Shown here piece by piece: positions 1,307 through 47,606 of a stretch of DNA of 47,606 nucleotides (position 1 is its first letter; every line of letters starts with the position of its first letter). The translations under genes were made by a program, and so were the position numbers. The notes below the pieces were generated by a model that saw only the letters and a list, made by a program, of their open reading frames with translations, did no database searches and had not been told where the DNA came from. Where the stretch lies: the IMG/VR virus record IMGVR_UViG_3300044445_000049, positions 1-47,606 of that record. One strand, given 5' to 3'. This stretch comes from a virus.

Positions 1307-1336
1307 GAGGAGACCGCCCCGCGTGGGGAGGTTGCC
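1307..1336 (-). promoter_or_regulatory. Class II promoter-like motif (copy 1), directly before int
   Basis: Minus strand: AGGCAAC-CTCCCCACGCGG-GGCGGTCTCCTCTCC-ATG. GTCT lies 7 nt before the ATG and there is no SD. Confidence 0.6.
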
Positions 1337-8418: not shown

Positions 8419-10917
8419 TCAGATGATGGCGTCGAGGTCGGCGCCGTTGATTTCCGTTGCAGAGGAGACCGCCTGGCCGCCCACGGCTGCCCGCGCAATT
8501 TCTGCGTCTTGGTCGCCCTCCTTCACGGCGTCCGTTCGGCGGGCACGGCGGACGCCTTCGAAGGCCACCCCCGAGGCCGTCTTGACCTTGACGAGCTTTC
8601 GCTCCTCGAGGGCGCCGAAGAAGGTGCGCCGGGTCCAGCGCTCGCGCTGCGGGAGGTTCTCCTCGTCGGCCCACTCGAGGTAGGCCTCGAAGAGGGTTTT
8701 GCCCGAGACGCGACCCGCCTCGCCGTCAGCGACGAAGATGCCGGGCAGGAAGCCCGCGAGGGCGTCGGACGTCTCGCGGTACTCCTTCGTGTGAGCGCTG
8801 ACGGTCTCGGGGTCGCGGAGGCCGTGGGCGTACCACTCGATCGCGCCGGCCACGGCCCAGGCGAAAATGCCCTCGGCTTCGGCGAGGAGCTTGTCGCCGA
8901 GACGGCCGTCTCGCTCGTGCGGCGCGAAGAAGCGTTCCCAGGGGATGAACTTGACGCGGCGCCAGAGTCCGTCATCCTGTCCGCGGAACTCGGGCTTGGC
9001 GTTGGTCGCCAGCATGAGGAGGAAGGTGGGGCGGAACTCGAAGAACTCCTTACGCATGAAGCGCGCGGAGATAAGGTCGCGGCCGGTGACGCGCTTGAGT
9101 ACGGCCTCGGCCATGCGCTTGCCCGCCTCGCCCTCCGAGGCCATGACGAGTCGCGCACCCTTGAGAGCTGCGAGGTCGTTGGGGATGCCACCGGAGGGCC
9201 GCTCCTCAAAAGTCGAGAAGGGCGTAGTGGTGGTCAGCTCCCGGAAGACCTCCGTGAGCGTGTCCGTGAAGACCGACTTGCCGTTAGCTCCGCCGCCCCA
9301 GTGGACCGCGAAGCACTGCTCGGCCGTCGAGCCGGTGATGCCGTACCCGACGAGACGCCGCATGTAGGCGGGGAGGTCGGGGTAGGCGGGGAAGACCTCG
9401 TCGAGGAACGCCTCCCAGCGCGGCGCGGTCGCGCGGGGGTTGTAGTCGAGCTCGACGCGGCGGGTGAGGAGAAGGTTGGGGTCGTGCGGCCGTAGTTCGC
9501 CCGTCTTGAGGTTGACGACGCCGTTGCGGCACGCGAGGAGTTCGGGGTGCTTGTCGAAGTCCTCGAGCGAGGCGGGGACGCCCCGGACGGCTTGCAGCTC
9601 GCGGAGCATGGAGTCGATGCCGCGGGTGGTCTGGACGTGCTGCGAGTAGCGCTGGAACCGCCCGGCGCGCTTCTTGTTGCGCTCGCGCTCCTCCTCGGTC
9701 GCCCCCTCGGTCGCGGCCTTGGACGCCTCGAGGGCCAGCTTCTTGACGATGTCGGCGACCTCTTGCGCGTGCGTGCGCGTGGCCTGTCGGTCGTCCTTAC
9801 GCCAGACGCCGGAGTCCAGGAGGAGGAAGCCGACCTCTTCGGTGTACTTGACGCCGGAGCCGATGCTCTCGACGTAGTCGCGGAGGTAGCGGGCGCCGCC
9901 GAGGTCGGAGAGGGCGTAGACGCGCTCGTCCCAGGCGAGGAGCGAAGCCTCGCGAGAGGCGACGGGGCGGGCATCCGAGATAGCCCGGATGACGTCGCGA
10001 GCGAAGCCGGGGCCGCTCTGGGCGCGCCAGTCGGTCAGGTCGAGGCCGTCGGCCAGGTCGAGCACGCGCACGCGGACACCTCTAGCAACGAGGCCCTCGG
10101 CCAGGGTCGCCGAGAAGCGTCGGCCGGCGGGGTCGCCGTCACCCGCGACGATGGCCTCACGGTCGCCGAGCCATCCGGCCACCTCGTCGACAATCGCGGG
10201 GTTGCCCGCGTGCGAGGCCCCGGCGATGCCGATGGTGTCGTAGCCGAGAGCGGCGCCGGTCAGAGCGTCGCCCGGGCCCTCACAGATGAGCACCTCGGGC
10301 CAGCCGGAGGAGCCGGGGAAGAAGCCCGTCTTGGCCCACGAGCCGCCCTCGGGCGACTTGGGACCGAGCCAGCGGACGGCCGCGTCAGCCTCGAGCGCAC
10401 GGGCCTGGAAGTTGCGAGCGACGCCGTCGGGATCGCGGAACGGGACGACGAGGCGAGGGCCGCCACCGATGTCGTCGACGTAGCCGAGGCCAAGACGCTC
10501 GAGGTCGGCTGTCGTGAGTCCGAAGCGGTCGACGGCGTAGCGCGCGGCTTCGTAGAGGGACTCGGGGACGGACTCGGGGTCATGCGGGCCAGTCAGGGCC
10601 TCGGCGTACCCGTCGAGACGCACGGCAAGTTCCGCGATGGCGGCCGGTGTAGCCGGGAGTGCCACGGATGCCTTCTTCGTCGCCGGGATCGAGTCGTCGA
10701 CACGCATGCGGGCGAGGTCGCGCATGGTCATGCCGACCTTCTCGACGACGGCCGGGGTCTGGCATCCGGCGCGGCACTTGAGGAGGACGTTGCCGGTCGT
10801 GCCGATCGTGACGCGGAGGGAGTTGTGGGAGTCGGCGTGAGCGGGGCACGGGGCGAGGTAGCCGTCGGCGGTCTCCTCGACGCCGTCGAACTTGGAGAGG
10901 AAGTCGGTGAGGGTCAT
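8419..10917 (-). CDS. Bifunctional DNA primase / P4-D5-type helicase (832 aa)
   Basis: N-terminal zinc finger CPAHADSHNSLRV..CRAGC, Toprim region (EGPGDAL, DGDPAG), Walker A GGGANGKS. Confidence 0.9.
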   Translation of the reverse strand: MTLTDFLSKFDGVEETADGYLAPCPAHADSHNSLRVTIGTTGNVLLKCRAGCQTPAVVEKVGMTMRDLARMRVDDSIPATKKASVALPATPAAIAELAVRLDGYAEALTGPHDPESVPESLYEAARYAVDRFGLTTADLERLGLGYVDDIGGGPRLVVPFRDPDGVARNFQARALEADAAVRWLGPKSPEGGSWAKTGFFPGSSGWPEVLICEGPGDALTGAALGYDTIGIAGASHAGNPAIVDEVAGWLGDREAIVAGDGDPAGRRFSATLAEGLVARGVRVRVLDLADGLDLTDWRAQSGPGFARDVIRAISDARPVASREASLLAWDERVYALSDLGGARYLRDYVESIGSGVKYTEEVGFLLLDSGVWRKDDRQATRTHAQEVADIVKKLALEASKAATEGATEEERERNKKRAGRFQRYSQHVQTTRGIDSMLRELQAVRGVPASLEDFDKHPELLACRNGVVNLKTGELRPHDPNLLLTRRVELDYNPRATAPRWEAFLDEVFPAYPDLPAYMRRLVGYGITGSTAEQCFAVHWGGGANGKSVFTDTLTEVFRELTTTTPFSTFEERPSGGIPNDLAALKGARLVMASEGEAGKRMAEAVLKRVTGRDLISARFMRKEFFEFRPTFLLMLATNAKPEFRGQDDGLWRRVKFIPWERFFAPHERDGRLGDKLLAEAEGIFAWAVAGAIEWYAHGLRDPETVSAHTKEYRETSDALAGFLPGIFVADGEAGRVSGKTLFEAYLEWADEENLPQRERWTRRTFFGALEERKLVKVKTASGVAFEGVRRARRTDAVKEGDQDAEIARAAVGGQAVSSATEINGADLDAII
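8462..8491 (-). promoter_or_regulatory. Class II promoter-like motif (copy 2), embedded in the last 25 codons of the primase-helicase gene
   Basis: Minus strand: GGGCAGC-CGTGGGCGGCCA-GGCGGTCTCCTCTGC. Confidence 0.55.
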
Positions 10918-10947: not shown

Positions 10948-10977
10948 GAGGAGACCGCCTGGGCGGCCGAGAGCGCC
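10948..10977 (-). promoter_or_regulatory. Class II promoter-like motif (copy 3), upstream of the primase-helicase gene
   Basis: Minus strand: AGGCGCT-CTCGGCCGCCCA-GGCGGTCTCCTCTTC. The -35 half is weaker than in other copies. Confidence 0.5.
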
Positions 10978-13278: not shown

Positions 13279-13308
13279 GAGGAGACCGCCTGGGGGTGGC
13301 GGGCTGCC
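13279..13308 (-). promoter_or_regulatory. Class II promoter-like motif (copy 4)
   Basis: Minus strand: GGGCAGC-CCGCCACCCCCA-GGCGGTCTCCTCTGTGTCCCA. Confidence 0.6.
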
Positions 13309-17874: not shown

Positions 17875-17904
17875 GAGGAGACCGCCAGGCTGCCCGCGAG
17901 TGCC
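17875..17904 (-). promoter_or_regulatory. Class II promoter-like motif (copy 5)
   Basis: Minus strand: GGGCACT-CGCGGGCAGCCT-GGCGGTCTCCTCTGC-ATG. Confidence 0.6.
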
Positions 17905-19541: not shown

Positions 19542-20376
19542 GCCGCGAAGCCCGTGGTCTTGGCGCGCGGGGCGCGGCGGCGAGCGGTGGCCGGGGCAGT
19601 CGAGCCGGTGCCGGGGCCGGAGGCGACGGGGACGCCGACGACGGTGGGCTTGAGGACGTCCCAGTCGAAGACCTTGCGGAGGGCCTTGAAGAGTTCGAAG
19701 ACCTCCTCGTCCGCGCGGACCGGCGTGAGGTGCCAGCCCTCGGGACGAATGTGCAGCACGGCCGCGCCGTCGCCCGGGGTGTTCGGGGTGCGGGTGCCGT
19801 CGGGTCGGAGAATGTGCTTGGCGTAGCGGTAGGCCGAGAGCTGCAAGCCGACCTCGGCGTGAACGCCGGATCGGGTCGTCTTGTTGTCGCCCCAGATGGT
19901 CATACCGTCGATCTTGGCGAGCCAGTCGAACGAGCCCGCGTACTTGTTCTCGTCGTCCCACACGGTCTCTTCCATGTGGAGGAACTCGGGCTGGACGGTG
20001 TCGAGGAAGTGCTCGAAGTGGTCGCGGAACGGGCGGAGGTCGTCGGAGACGTACTTCATGCCCTCGCCGCCGGCCATGCGCTCGAAGACGTCGTGCGCGG
20101 CGGTGCCGATGTCGGCGGCCTTCTTCGTATTGCGATAAGGCGTGCGCTTGAGCATGTCGATCGCGGCCTCGGGGTCGCGGGCTGCGATGGAGGCGACGGC
20201 CTCGAGGTTGTAGACGGCCTCCTCGGCGACGAGCTTGGCCGCCCAATGCTGCAAGAAGCTCTTGTCGAGGTTCTTGAGGACGGAAGTGACGCCGGGGTAC
20301 TTGTCTCCGGTGGTGGGCTCTACGTAGAAGCGCGAGCCGGCGCGCTTGATTGTGTTCACTTTTGGCGTCGTCACGC
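19538..20376 (-). CDS. PD-(D/E)XK (RecB/Cas4-like) exonuclease
   Basis: GTG at 20376 after AGGAGG. ..AGSFDWLAKIDGMTIWGDNKTT.. (D..D.K), ..QLSAYRYA.. Confidence 0.8.
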
Positions 20377-20410: not shown

Positions 20411-20440
20411 GAGGAGACCGCCTAGGAGGGCAGGGGTGCC
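20411..20440 (-). promoter_or_regulatory. Class II promoter-like motif (copy 6)
   Basis: Minus strand: GGGCACC-CCTGCCCTCCTA-GGCGGTCTCCTCTGTGTCCCA. Confidence 0.6.
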
Positions 20441-20490
20441 CGCCCCGGGGCGGGCGGATCGCCGCGGGGTGGGCCCTGGACGCGCAAGAT

Positions 20491-20589
20491 GACGAAATGA
20501 CGATTTGAACGTCATTTCCTATTACTTGCTCTAGAGAGCTACAAACTAAGAAGGGGAATGGAGAATGACGTTTGTTCCGTCATTTCGTC
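20491..20589. promoter_or_regulatory. Operator/promoter module A: two palindromes flanking an AT-rich core
   Basis: GAAATGACG-atttgaa-CGTCATTTC (20494-20518) and GAATGACG-tttgttc-CGTCATTT (20563-20585). The outer 12-mers GACGAAATGACG / CGTCATTTCGTC are perfect inverted repeats. This is one of the lowest-GC stretches of the window. Confidence 0.7.
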
Positions 20590-20600
20590 ATCCCGCTAGG

Positions 20601-21173
20601 TCATCCGATACGTTCGCGCGCCCTCCCGACCGCTTGCTCGAGGCTCGAGTAGGCGTCCTGCACGAGGAGTTTGTCGACGCTCGACGCCCGCGGCACGCCC
20701 GACACTCGACTCACGGCGAGGCGAGCGAGGTTCGCCACGAGGAGGACGTCCTCCACCTCGTCGAGTTCGCTGCCGCCCGAGAACAGGCTCACGATGTGCC
20801 CATCGCGGTCGGCCCGGCGCCGCGCCCGCTCGGCGAACGAGTCCGGGTTGATCCCAAGTTCCTCGGCGATGTTCGGGTGACGCTGACGGAGGATCGGCGA
20901 GACGTGGTAGCGGAGGTTCGATTGAAGGCTCGGCCGGTCGCCTCGCGGCACCCCTGCCTGGTCGAGCGCCTCAGTGACAAACGTGCGGTAGGCGTTGGAA
21001 CGCCCTCGATAGTCGGGCTCGCCCTCCCGAGTCTGTATGAGTTCGCGGGCGTCGACGAGGGCCTCGGCGACTTCCTTGGCGGCGACGGTGCGCTCGGCAC
21101 CCTCATGGGACATGTAGCTCCGCATGCCGTCGGCTACGCGGCGTTGTATCTCTTCCAAACGGGCTGAGGTCAT
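20601..21173 (-). CDS. Hypothetical protein (190 aa) in a stand-alone cassette
   Basis: ATG at 21173 (MTSARLEEIQRRVADGMRSYM..). Bracketed by hairpin 21241-21270 plus a sigma-A-like promoter upstream and by module A downstream. Confidence 0.65.
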   Translation of the reverse strand: MTSARLEEIQRRVADGMRSYMSHEGAERTVAAKEVAEALVDARELIQTREGEPDYRGRSNAYRTFVTEALDQAGVPRGDRPSLQSNLRYHVSPILRQRHPNIAEELGINPDSFAERARRRADRDGHIVSLFSGGSELDEVEDVLLVANLARLAVSRVSGVPRASSVDKLLVQDAYSSLEQAVGRARERIG

Positions 21174-22312: not shown

Positions 22313-22342
22313 GAGGAGACCGCCTCAATGCCCGGCGCTGCC
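22313..22342 (-). promoter_or_regulatory. Class II promoter-like motif (copy 7)
   Basis: Minus strand: GGGCAGC-GCCGGGCATTGA-GGCGGTCTCCTCCGC-ATG. Confidence 0.6.
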
Positions 22343-41711: not shown

Positions 41712-41782
41712 GGCGGACACTAGGACTCGAACCTAGACATTCGGTTTTGGAGACCGACGCTCTGCCATTGAGCTATGTCCCC
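41712..41782 (-). tRNA. tRNA-Trp(CCA)-like, no encoded CCA end
   Basis: GGGGACA TA GCTC AATGGCA GAGC G TCGGT CTCCAAA ACCGA ATGT CTAGG TTCGAGT CCTAG TGTCCGC C. G2:G71 mismatch in the acceptor stem. Confidence 0.65.
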
Positions 41783-41783
41783 A

Positions 41784-41859
41784 TGGCTGGCGAGGCAGGG
41801 ATCGAACCTACGCGCTTCCGAGTAACAGTCGGGTGCTCTGCCTACTGAGCTACTCGCCA
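41784..41859 (-). tRNA. tRNA-Asn(GTT) with encoded CCA
   Basis: TGGCGAG TA GCTC AGTAGGCA GAGC A CCCGA CTGTTAC TCGGA AGCGC GTAGG TTCGATC CCTGC CTCGCCA G CCA. Confidence 0.8.
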
Positions 41860-41860
41860 A

Positions 41861-41936
41861 TGGCTCCCTCGCAAGGATTCGAACCTCGGCCTCAACGGGT
41901 CCAAGGCCCGGCGTGCTGCCGTTACACCACGAGGGA
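41861..41936 (-). tRNA. tRNA-Gln(TTG)-like with encoded CCA
   Basis: TCCCTCG TG GTGT AACGGCA GCAC G CCGGG CCTTGGA CCCGT ... CGAGG TTCGAAT CCTTG CGAGGGA G CCA. Gln-type D-arm. The anticodon loop has C instead of U at position 33. Confidence 0.6.
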
Positions 41937-43351: not shown

Positions 43352-43381
43352 GAGGAGACCGCCAGCGGTGGTAGTCCTGCC
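43352..43381 (-). promoter_or_regulatory. Class II promoter-like motif (copy 9)
   Basis: Minus strand: GGGCAGG-ACTACCACCGCT-GGCGGTCTCCTCTGC-ATG. Confidence 0.6.
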
Positions 43382-46360: not shown

Positions 46361-46822
46361 CTACGCGGTGCGTCGAGCGCGACGCGAGCCGGGGGCCGGC
46401 GCGGGGCGGACGAAGTCGGGGACGTCCGTGATGAGGGGCGGCTCGGGGGAGTGAATCTGCTGCGTCGCACGCTGCATATCGGTCTCGCCGAAGCCCCCCT
46501 CGGAGGGCGGCACGGGGGTCTTCGAAGCCGTCTCTGTGAGTTTCGCGGCATCCGGCGTGTCGGCCTCGTCGAACTCGCACCCGAGGAGGGTGGACGCCGC
46601 GAGGATGAGGAAGTCCCGCGTGGCGATGACGCCGTCGGCTCCTCCCTCGACGTCGAGGTAATACTCGAGGAGGTCGGCGGTGGCCTTCGCGTGGGCCTTG
46701 ATGAGGGGCCCCAGGACATAGGAGTCCGGGGACAGGTTGGAGGCGGAACACCCCGTGTCCGCCGCGGTGCGGAGGTGCTGGACGTGGAGGCGGGCTGCGT
46801 GCTCGATCTGATAGTTAGGCAT
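46361..46822 (-). CDS. Hypothetical protein (153 aa)
   Basis: MPNYQIEHAARLHVQHLRTAADTG.. ATGCCTAA overlap with the upstream gene. Confidence 0.65.
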   Translation of the reverse strand: MPNYQIEHAARLHVQHLRTAADTGCSASNLSPDSYVLGPLIKAHAKATADLLEYYLDVEGGADGVIATRDFLILAASTLLGCEFDEADTPDAAKLTETASKTPVPPSEGGFGETDMQRATQQIHSPEPPLITDVPDFVRPAPAPGSRRARRTA

Positions 46823-46994
46823 CGGGTTTCGGTGCGACTTCCGGCTTGCGTGGCTGACGGGACGCTCGAGCGCCCGTCGACGGCGTGGCGAGTGCGACGG
46901 CGATGGCCTCGAGGAGGAGGTTCGTGCGTGATGGGGAAGGGACCGGCTGCGCGCGAGCGCTCTCGATCAGGTCGGACGGGGTCGGGTGTGCCAT
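46815..46994 (-). CDS. Hypothetical protein (59 aa), first gene after module B
   Basis: ATG at 46994 after GAGAGG. MAHPTPSDLIESARAQPVPSPSRTNLLLEAIAVALA.. Below the ORF-track cut-off. Confidence 0.5.
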   Translation of the reverse strand: MAHPTPSDLIESARAQPVPSPSRTNLLLEAIAVALATPSTGARASRQPRKPEVAPKPDA

Positions 46995-47025: not shown

Positions 47026-47055
47026 AAGGAGACCGCCTCGGCGGGCCGGGTTGCC
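47026..47055 (-). promoter_or_regulatory. Class II promoter-like motif (copy 10)
   Basis: Minus strand: GGGCAAC-CCGGCCCGCCGA-GGCGGTCTCCTTCTC. Confidence 0.55.
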
Positions 47056-47065
47056 CGTCGAGGAT

Positions 47066-47165
47066 GACGGAATGACGATTTGAACGTCATTCCCTATTAC
47101 TTGCTTGAGGAGAGCACACACTAAGTAGAGGAATGGGAAATGACGTTTCGAAACGTCATTCCGTC
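47066..47165. promoter_or_regulatory. Operator/promoter module B (paralogue of module A)
   Basis: GGAATGACG-atttgaa-CGTCATTCC (47069-47093) and the perfect 22-bp palindrome AATGACGTTTCGAAACGTCATT (47139-47160). Outer 12-mers GACGGAATGACG / CGTCATTCCGTC are perfect inverted repeats. Confidence 0.7.
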
Positions 47166-47273
47166 ACTCTCGCCCCCGGCGCTGCCCCCCGCGGCCCTCC
47201 GATGCTAACTCAGGGCTCCGACATTCGCGCCGGAAGGTGCGCGCGAGAGGCCACACGCTGCCTCCGGCGCCCC

Positions 47274-47606
47274 TCAGAGGGCCCCCTCGAAGTCGTTCCA
47301 GTGGATCGTGACGCGCTCCGGCGAGCCCACAGGGTTCACGACGACGTGATCCATGACGCGGAGGAGCATGCGGCGCCGCTCGTCATCGTCCCGGGCCGCG
47401 TCCCACGCCTCTCGGTAGGTGCGTCCCGTGTAGACCACGTCCTCGACGACGCTGGGGGCCACCTCGCGGAGGGCGCGTCGCCGGGCCTTGAGGGCGAGCA
47501 TGCTCGACGTGATGTCGTCGGCCTCTTCCTCCTCGTCGGCCGCTGCCAGGCGCCCCGCTAGCTCCTTGAGGCGCGCCTCAACGTCTGCGAGCTCGGCGCC
47601 GGCGCC
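47274..47606 (-). CDS. int: Large serine recombinase, C-terminal part (the last 127 nt of this feature duplicate nt 1-127)
   Basis: In-frame continuation ..ITSSMLALKARRRALREVAPSVVEDVVYTGRTYREAWDAARDDDERRRMLLRVMDHVVVNPVGSPERVTIHWNDFEGAL*. Confidence 0.9.
   Translation of the reverse strand, partial: GAGAELADVEARLKELAGRLAAADEEEEADDITSSMLALKARRRALREVAPSVVEDVVYTGRTYREAWDAARDDDERRRMLLRVMDHVVVNPVGSPERVTIHWNDFEGAL

Follow-up and report, generated by a model that had tools for sequence, protein, structure and literature searches.

We describe two copies of a compact, AT-rich, palindromic element in the circular genome (about 47.5 kb) of a temperate actinophage, and we lean towards reading these islands as paired replication origins of the iteron/AT-rich type, or as helicase-loading sites, for the phage's own primase-helicase of the P4/SaPI type. 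Throughout, the window refers to the whole stretch of 47,606 nucleotides that was analysed. This reading draws on sequence comparison and on analogy with characterised systems, and three sets of observations lead us to favour it. The geometry of the repeated pentamers is that of the SaPI origin (PMC9371898), and the islands have the lowest GC content of the genome. The C-terminal domain (CTD) of the primase-helicase largely co-varies with the pentamer motif, while the gp25-like protein and the sigma-like protein of these phages do not. Finally, the core of one island in phage Ascela is flipped, which points to an element that is independent of orientation.

Several observations count against the origin reading. 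The islands are far from the primase-helicase gene, in phage VroomVroom the helix of the CTD is unchanged despite a different iteron core, and both islands lie just upstream of operon starts, which is an operator-like position. The original prediction had been a repressor operator and promoter module. Its array of short, putatively protein-binding sites flanking an AT-rich core stands, while a promoter in that core is not supported. Origins of this type are a known kind of element, and their presence in these phages would be new. To our knowledge, hardly any replication origins of actinobacteriophages have been mapped.

Structure of the islands and their place in the genome

Positions 1-127 of the window are identical to positions 47480-47606, and the window is therefore a closed circular genome. 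Its nearest described relative is Microbacterium phage phiMiGM15, and it belongs with Arthrobacter cluster AZ and Microbacterium cluster EH, a group that carries a serine integrase. Nearly all of the phage genes are on one strand, the minus strand of the window. Read in the phage sense, island A has the gene at 20601-21173 upstream and a class II motif downstream, so the neighbours had been named correctly; the exonuclease operon that follows starts with a GTG at 20374. On the circle, the primase-helicase gene is separated from the islands by about 9.6 kb (the upstream island) and about 8.8 kb (the downstream one). The cumulative GC skew of the window is monotonic and carries no origin signal. 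Coordinates of all features are collected in Table 1.

Table 1. Coordinates of the two islands and of associated features in the window.
Feature	Position	Strand	Remarks
Island A	20490-20590	.	Imperfect palindrome of about 101 bp in the gap between the gp25-like gene and the exonuclease-replication operon
Island A, TGACG	20490-20494, 20498-20502, 20566-20570	+	
Island A, complements (CGTCA)	20510-20514, 20578-20582, 20586-20590		
Island A, AT-rich centre	20515-20565	.	Candidate DNA-unwinding element
Island B	47065-47166	.	Second copy; serine integrase gene just upstream, right-arm small genes downstream
Island B, TGACG	47065-47069, 47073-47077, 47141-47145		
Island B, CGTCA	47085-47089, 47154-47158, 47162-47166		
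Island B, AT-rich centre	47090-47140		
Class II motif GGCGGTCTCCT	20412-20422	-	Downstream of island A, outside the island
Class II motif	47027-47037	-	Downstream of island B and outside it; the 59-aa gene 46994-46815 follows
Primase-helicase, 832 aa	8419-10917	-	Proposed iteron-recognising initiator
Primase-helicase, C-terminal winged helix	8518-8775	-	About aa 715-800; helix ERWTRRTFFGALEE, wing KLVKVKTASGVAFEGVRR

The outer 12-mers of island A, GACGAAATGACG (20491-20502) and CGTCATTTCGTC (20578-20589), are exact reverse complements of each other, as had been noted. The two dyads described on either side of an AT-rich core were likewise recovered, with spacers of 7 nt and with TGACG at 20498 and 20566, 68 bp apart. 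The count of four half-sites has to be revised: each outer 12-mer contains a pair of pentamers with a spacing of 8 bp, so that every island has six TGACG/CGTCA pentamers. The resulting layout in both islands of the window is two forward pentamers and one reversed, a centre of 51 bp, and then one forward and two reversed (> > <, centre, > < <). In each arm the two direct pentamers are spaced 8 bp start to start and the inverted partner lies 12-13 bp from the inner one; across the islands compared, equivalent sites of opposite arms are 66-69 bp apart. The arms form perfect 13-bp terminal inverted repeats that contain multiple sites. In many B copies of Arthrobacter phages, one more pentamer flanks each arm, 11-12 bp outside the others, which brings the number per island from six in the window up to eight.

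The centre of island A contains an inner dyad (CCTATT...GGAATGG), a short palindrome (CTCTAGAG), and an AG-rich tract that is CT-rich on the phage sense strand. Relatives keep an inner dyad, CTAT(T)CC...GG(A)ATAG, between the arms; a second, short dyad there is variable and surrounds a (CT)n tract.

A single further near-identical module beside int had been proposed, and this was borne out. The window holds exactly two copies, with 83% column identity in an alignment that includes about 20 bp of flank, and the similarity between them drops exactly at the island borders. The sequence RAATGACG has nine matches in the window, eight of them inside the islands; 1.75 would be expected, and none of 100 shuffles reached nine. 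All four window matches to TGACGNNNTGACG are inside the islands (0.19 expected). The islands are also the two 100-bp intervals of lowest GC content in the genome, at 41-44% versus about 69%.

Conservation and motif change among related phages

Searches with blastn and nhmmer found the island in unannotated DNA of many Arthrobacter and Microbacterium phages. We compared complete genomes of the window and 16 phages from three host genera, comprising members of clusters AZ and EH and Curtobacterium relatives. Exactly two islands were present in every complete genome examined, with the exception of Zeta1847, which has no TGACG islands and carries a different array, CGTCCGCC, downstream of int. In all of the others the islands are syntenic, in agreement with the conservation of half-sites in relatives that had been put forward as a check. 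The first copy has on one side a conserved gene for a protein of about 190 aa, itself preceded by the dNMP kinase gene, and on the other the exonuclease gene with which the replication operon begins. The second has the serine integrase gene just upstream and the right-arm small genes downstream, and this arrangement too is syntenic in relatives. VroomVroom keeps both islands and has no integrase. A prophage of Microbacterium sp. XT11 has an island at the same junction, and about seven further island-bearing contigs were found in IMG/VR.

We also searched bacteria and archaea, with one genome per species, for the geometry of the whole island. More than 120 matches were returned, and a match was taken as a true island when it had outer iterons and a low-GC centre. 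At least 15 were true islands and, among the matches listed, all of these were in prophages of Actinomycetota, in the genera Microbacterium, Arthrobacter, Cryobacterium, Subtercola, Leifsonia, Actinotalea, and Actinoplanes. No genome among the matches listed had more than two, and paired copies were 24-29 kb apart, which is the arc from island B to island A expected for a prophage integrated next to int. The other matches were unrelated tandem hairpin repeats or chance occurrences.

These distributions bear on whether the islands are mobile or recombination elements, be it a MITE bounded by terminal inverted repeats, the attP of the integrase, or a site of the res type. The perfect 13-bp terminal repeats with their multiple sites do resemble transposon ends, and copy B adjoins the integrase gene. 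A mobile element is nevertheless hard to reconcile with at most two islands per genome among the matches listed, all of them in Actinomycetota prophages, with syntenic positions in three host genera, and with the lack of a target-site duplication. The islands are thus phage-specific and not a widespread host repeat, as had been expected. In the phiAAU2 record the island (358-456) and the mapped attP core (2082-2084) are 1.6 kb apart; this separation, the remoteness of copy A from int, and the retention of both islands by VroomVroom without an integrase speak against attP. Recombination between two res-like islands would delete 21-27 kb of essential genes. We reject the MITE and attP readings and find this group of explanations as a whole hardly credible.

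The motif itself changes between relatives. In VroomVroom, every site of both islands is ATGTCG or CGACAT, with a TGTCG core. In the Curtobacterium phage Kalimba, AGTGAC occurs three times as a direct repeat and GTCACT three times inverted, and there are no local dyads or hairpins. In these divergent relatives the pentamer is altered in concert at all sites of both islands, and its direct and inverted copies are identical. Since Kalimba does without local hairpins, what is conserved is an array of short motifs around an AT-rich centre and not a set of hairpins. Concerted change with identical direct and inverted copies points to sites for a phage-encoded protein, because RNA pairing requires neither. 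As judged from these sequence patterns, the islands are arrays of putative protein-binding sites rather than RNA hairpins. Soondubu and CallinAllBarbz use ATGACG on the same host species as VroomVroom, which argues that the specificity is set by the phage and not by the host.

The same observations decide against an RNA element, in which hairpins in the transcript would either end transcription of the upstream operon or shape the 5' leader of the mRNA that follows. The predicted fold is very stable: as single-stranded DNA, island A forms a single long hairpin (dG -25.7 kcal/mol, z -7.4), and one A-to-G difference between islands A and B is compensated in a stem. The hairpins had indeed been offered as possible terminators, but terminator-like calls were made on the antisense strand only, the sense strand has no T-run after the hairpins, and the islands of the Curtobacterium phage keep their arrays without local hairpins. 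Pentamers that are the same in both orientations and shift together also disagree with it. A scan of the window with Rfam 15 returned three tRNAs only, with no RNA family match in the islands. An RNA function is therefore most improbable.

Orientation of the core differs as well. The core of Ascela copy B is flipped relative to Ascela copy A and to both Kaylissa copies, with an identity of 84-88% as the reverse complement versus 67-71% in the direct orientation.

The primase-helicase as candidate initiator

Pfam assigns to the primase-helicase a Toprim domain (aa 209-303), a D5_N domain (342-510), and an SF3 helicase/DUF5906 domain (541-654), and about 180 residues extend beyond the SF3 helicase. 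The best solved relative in a PDB sequence search was 7OLA (E 1.6e-8). This structure is PriRep5 of SaPI5, a self-loading initiator-helicase whose C-terminal winged helix recognises penta- or hexanucleotide iterons (PMC9371898). A profile of the C-terminal region of the window protein aligns to PriRep5 residues 585-731 (E 1.1e-5), reaching into its CTD. The AF2 model of the CTD is a winged helix with a core pLDDT of 88-97. In Foldseek searches with this model, the best matches were the equivalent region of the D5-type primase-helicase of ASFV (PrimPol C962R) and the RFX-DNA structure 1DP7 (TM score 0.71, target-normalised; rmsd 2.1 Å), followed by other winged-helix DNA binders, all with modest E values (7e-3 to 8e-2). 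No winged-helix paralogue was found elsewhere in the window.

We then compared the CTD with the iterons of the same genome. In 17 of 18 genomes the type of CTD corresponds to the variant of the iteron, VroomVroom being ambiguous, and shared ancestry partly confounds this correspondence. Proteins with a WTRRTFF helix go with an A before TGACG (82 of 88 sites), those with WSQRAFY mostly with a G (6/6 in XT11, 10/12 in IAmGroot, 9/13 in Barnstormer, and 7/12 in SuMoo), and those with WSRRAFY with a mixture of C, A, and G. This rule was stated from 12 genomes and afterwards applied to five more (Gretchen, IAmGroot, Soondubu, CallinAllBarbz, and Percival), and it held in all five. Within the new prophage loci, of 8 kb each, the CTD comparison covered one alone, the IMG/VR contig L023, where the rule held too. 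Iterons of the G type also occur in prophages of Arthrobacter sp. B2a2-09, Actinoplanes cyaneus, and Cryobacterium sp. PH31-L1, for which the rule predicts a helix like WSQRAFY.

Several genomes have a CTD that departs from the rest of the protein. The window and phiMiGM15 have a helicase core nearest to that of Microbacterium phages (75-93% identity to Barnstormer), while their CTD is nearest to that of Arthrobacter phages (72-80% to Reedo versus 50-54% to Barnstormer). Their iterons are of the Arthrobacter type, which runs counter to overall relatedness. The Kalimba protein is 60-90% identical overall and just 31-43% over the last 150 residues or so, whereas Reedo and the window, from different host genera, share 74-80% over most of that stretch. 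In the island-less Zeta1847, the primase part is 60-80% identical and the helicase and CTD are unrelated (about 20%); this helicase module has no partners in the phage collection, so that Zeta1847 is a single case. In VroomVroom, where the helix is unchanged, the wing reads KRRV in place of the (R/K/V)KT of all other A-type phages. Because RFX-type domains contact DNA largely via the wing (PMC2777425), we treat this change as a lead and not as an explanation.

Other proteins were considered as the ligand of the islands. The product of gene 20601-21173 had been suggested as a binder, but the gp25-like protein of about 190 aa is an all-alpha bundle (pLDDT 93) with no PDB match below E 0.27 and no DNA-binding fold, and Zeta1847 keeps gp25 at 47% identity although it has no island. 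The gp25-like protein is restricted to this phage group and has a weak Pfam match to the phiC31 repressor c (E 0.088). In the sigma-like protein, the recognition helix of region 4 does not follow the motif. The first gene downstream of island B encodes a conserved helical protein with a basic tail that has no Pfam match and is not ribbon-helix-helix-like. The only DNA-binding candidates from Pfam were the sigma-like protein and a DUF2637-HTH protein; among 20 further small proteins, Pfam found nothing in 18, and the two confident matches were not DNA-binding regulators. No repressor has been reported for these phages, so the actual ligand could also be some small protein that binds DNA but was not recognised as such.

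If the islands act as origins, the primase-helicase would bind the TGACG pentamers through its C-terminal winged helix, and the mirror-image arms would assemble head-to-head oligomers flanking the centre. The centre, predicted to be the most easily melted 50 bp or so of the genome and placed in a cruciform-capable palindrome, would then open and allow rings of the SF3 helicase to load themselves. The Toprim domain would prime, and the phage DNA polymerase I would extend. Each genome would have a pair of these sites, the first preceding the replication operon and the second following the integrase gene. Binding, melting, initiation, and a division of labour between the copies are all steps that we infer.

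The closest model for this scheme is the SaPI origin, in which 6-12 iterons are divided equally over the two flanks of an AT-rich centre and no fewer than two on each flank are opposed (PMC9371898). The islands likewise have six pentamers, within the SaPI range of 6-12 penta- or hexanucleotide iterons, and half of these lie on each side of an AT-rich centre in opposed orientations. As in SaPIs, the proposed initiator is a homologous primase-SF3 helicase with a predicted C-terminal winged helix. The iteron sequence differs between elements and in the phages appears to do so together with the initiator. The two systems differ in position, since the SaPI origin is directly downstream of rep while the phage islands are about 9-10 kb away on both sides. 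Location beside rep is, however, a positional habit of SaPIs and no mechanistic requirement. Unlike SaPIs, which have one site, the phage genomes have two, and they belong to complete temperate siphoviruses of high-GC actinobacterial hosts and not to satellites. The phage arms also hold a tight dyad, TGACG-N7-CGTCA, and the centre adds a conserved dyad and a (CT)n tract.

The P4 alpha protein combines a DnaG-type primase, an SF3 helicase, and a C-terminal winged helix, a domain that has also been aligned with RFX (PMC2777425). The window protein shares this layout of primase, SF3 helicase, and winged helix. The likeness is one of layout, as matches were to the PriRep5, ASFV C962R, and poxvirus D5 relatives only. 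P4 alpha binds short reiterated sequences at ori and crr, which are separate cis-acting regions a few kb apart and thereby a further precedent for two origin regions. Unlike the islands, P4 has octamer repeats, and its ori and crr do not derive from a single palindromic module present in two copies. A precedent for two discrete origin regions in a single phage genome is SPP1, where one initiator binds both oriL and oriR and each combines iterons with an unwinding element rich in AT (PMC5737612). That initiator, G38P, differs in being a replisome organiser of its own, which depends on a helicase loader together with a DnaB-type helicase and has no relationship to the SF3 primase-helicases. The SPP1 iterons are also not mirror-symmetric.

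If the islands are origins, an island together with the primase-helicase would make a minimal replicon and a starting point for shuttle vectors for Arthrobacter, Microbacterium, and Curtobacterium. The natural series of initiator and iteron pairs could also be used to learn how the winged helices of SF3 primase-helicases read DNA.

Promoters, operators, and regulation

The phages of clusters AZ and EH form stable, homoimmune lysogens, and no immunity repressor has been reported for them in the literature, which does describe an RpoS-like sigma factor encoded by these phages. That literature leaves open how all-rightward, repressor-less temperate phages are controlled. The comparative papers on cluster AZ and EH phages that we consulted do not mention the island element.

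In this setting the islands could be operator modules, to whose arrays a phage regulator, possibly the AZ/EH immunity repressor, would bind cooperatively and silence or insulate the two downstream operons, as lambda does from OL and OR. The islands occupy intergenic gaps directly ahead of the exonuclease/replication operon and of the right-arm small genes, there are precisely two of them, and arrays of direct and inverted short sites fit cooperative binding. The concerted change of the motif indicates a phage-encoded ligand, and AZ lysogens are homoimmune although no repressor is known. Lambda, too, has two regions per genome, and in each a group of short sites precedes an early operon. Its operators are dyads of 17 bp that lie next to the repressor gene and overlap with defined -35/-10 promoters. 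The island sites, unlike these, are of 5-6 bp and 8 bp apart, no core promoter was detected, the core occurs in either orientation, and these phages have no known repressor.

The core had been proposed to serve as a promoter, and on this point the evidence went the other way. Neither island has a match to a sigma-70-type promoter, and the core is inverted in Ascela copy B, in a phage that is viable. A separate promoter-like motif lies outside the islands. The class II motif is part of a bipartite promoter-like element, TGGGCA-N~16-GGCGGTCTCCTCTG, and each island is followed by one copy, 29-69 bp downstream and with a spacing that varies. The class II motif at 20412-20422 is a likelier promoter of the exonuclease operon than the island core. 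The islands might still contain promoters for a phage-specific sigma factor. Against an operator function stand, in addition, the failure of the candidate regulators (gp25 and the sigma-like protein) to co-vary with the motif, and the tracking of the motif by the primase-helicase CTD. We consider the operator reading unlikely, and it keeps what weight it has mainly because the islands are upstream of two operons and a repressor is missing.

The two functions could also be combined, with origins that serve additionally as transcriptional boundaries or as replication-coupled switches of the downstream operons. Boundary action could follow from initiator binding, because the bound initiator would sit between two transcription units. 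Origins that are activated by transcription, or that overlap promoters, are common in phages, as in lambda ori and T7. A dual role would unite the positional evidence for regulation with the evidence for an origin, but it is less parsimonious and no specific support for coupling was found; we regard it as unlikely too. A still bolder proposal, and a very unlikely one, is that iteron occupancy would govern the firing of the origins and, at the same time, transcriptional read-through into both early operons and thereby control the choice between lysis and lysogeny. The ligand would be the CTD or a small unrecognised lysogen factor, and the iteron/CTD pairs (ATGACG, GTGACG, TGTCG, and AGTGAC) would correspond to immunity groups. 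If true, this would be an immunity system based on origin recognition and not on a classical pair of repressor and operator.

A second promoter-like family, with elements of the form TTGCGC-N17-TAnnnT, occurs outside the islands. The TTGCGCG repeats inside these sigma-A-like promoters look more like classical operators than the islands do, a further point against the operator reading, and the search for the missing immunity operators accordingly shifts from the islands to the TTGCGCG-containing promoters.

Candidate promoter families

Outside the islands, the paired AT-rich TGACG iteron arrays proposed as replication origins, two repeat families in the window have the appearance of promoters. 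The second of these repeat families consists of TTGCGC and TAnnnT (TACCGT, TATGCT, or TAGAGT) separated by a 17-bp spacer and reads as sigma-A-type promoters. Its sites are found both in the regulatory region that precedes int and in the right arm, and TTGCGCG is repeated within the elements, with three copies at 14-bp spacing near 2155-2214. We consider these elements better candidates for the operators of the phage's repressor than the islands, to which the original prediction had given that role.

The class II repeat, found downstream of each island, is a bipartite motif, TGGGCA-N~16-GGCGGTCTCCTCTG, that is found only in non-structural regions of the genome. An ATG immediately adjoins four of the copies (...CTCCTCTGCATGAC). 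Class II resembles a phage-specific promoter from which leaderless transcripts would start, and the phage's sigma-like protein may recognize it. In phages of Arthrobacter and Curtobacterium, the islands are likewise followed by related motifs.

Positions of repeats, genes, and arrays in the window and in related records
Feature	Record	Position	Strand
TTGCGC-family elements	window	about 2214-2155, 3749-3718, 43696-43665, 44039-43980	minus
Class II copies	window	1308-1318, 8463-8473, 10949-10959, 13280-13290, 17876-17886, 20412-20422, 22314-22324, 43353-43363, 47027-47037	minus
Class II, further copy	window	10867-10877	plus
Gene for ~190-aa protein	window	20601-21173	minus
First gene past island B	window	46815-46994	minus
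Three adjacent tRNA genes (right arm)	window	41712-41936	minus
CGTGTAAACG	L007	~18650	
CGTGTAAACG	L009	~23810	
CGTGTAAACG	L040	~19920	
CGTGTAAACG	phiAAU2 (L002)	~490	
Serine integrase	phiAAU2 (L002)	602-2031	minus
GGCGGACG/CGTCCGCC array	Zeta1847 (L012)	20515-20960	both

Genes adjoining the islands, and tRNA genes

The ~190-aa protein encoded next to island A is conserved, with homologues in 100 phage records, and is limited to the AZ (Arthrobacter), EH (Microbacterium), and Curtobacterium phages, where its gene always has the dNMP kinase gene on one side and island A on the other. Its predicted structure is confident (pLDDT 93) and all-alpha with eight helices, and no structural relative of the model was found among PDB entries. 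The first gene past island B is likewise kept across the phage group (Reedo gp50, Ascela gp52, Barnstormer gp60, Zeta1847 gp53, and VroomVroom gp53). In its product, which had no match in Pfam, the N-terminal part is short and helical (...LLExA...) and leads into a disordered basic tail rich in proline and lysine. The tRNA trio of the right arm is also present in phiMiGM15 and other relatives.

The phiAAU2 integrase record

Just past the integrase stop codon and before island B, Arthrobacter and Microbacterium phages share a short conserved sequence, CGTGTAAACG, often contained in a GC-rich hairpin, that may be the int terminator. One example is in the phiAAU2 int-attP record from the 1990s (X89830.1), which also holds a full-length AZ-type serine integrase matching residues 17-481 of Snek gp51 at 45-57% identity (E 5e-99). 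The alignment is broken across three frames, a pattern that points to old sequencing frameshifts. This integrase lies on the strand opposite to the annotated 266-aa 'int', and the latter is therefore probably an antisense artefact. A 1996 paper on phiAAU2 reportedly found that integration needed a 'noncoding region upstream of int'; that stretch would correspond to the C-terminal half of the true integrase gene.

Origin-like arrays elsewhere

Downstream of its integrase, where a TGACG island would be, Zeta1847 carries at least 11 copies of GGCGGACG/CGTCCGCC, facing either way, at 11-12-bp spacing. The array co-occurs with a primase-helicase that, in its helicase and C-terminal regions, is unrelated to those of the rest of the group, and the array may be the origin for this different initiator. 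Separately, the matches listed from a genome scan included TGACGG/CCGTCA clusters around AT-rich DNA, with an island-like layout, in unrelated low-GC gut and rumen MAG contigs (L043, L047, L115, L137, and L139). By analogy, these clusters may be the origins of other mobile elements.
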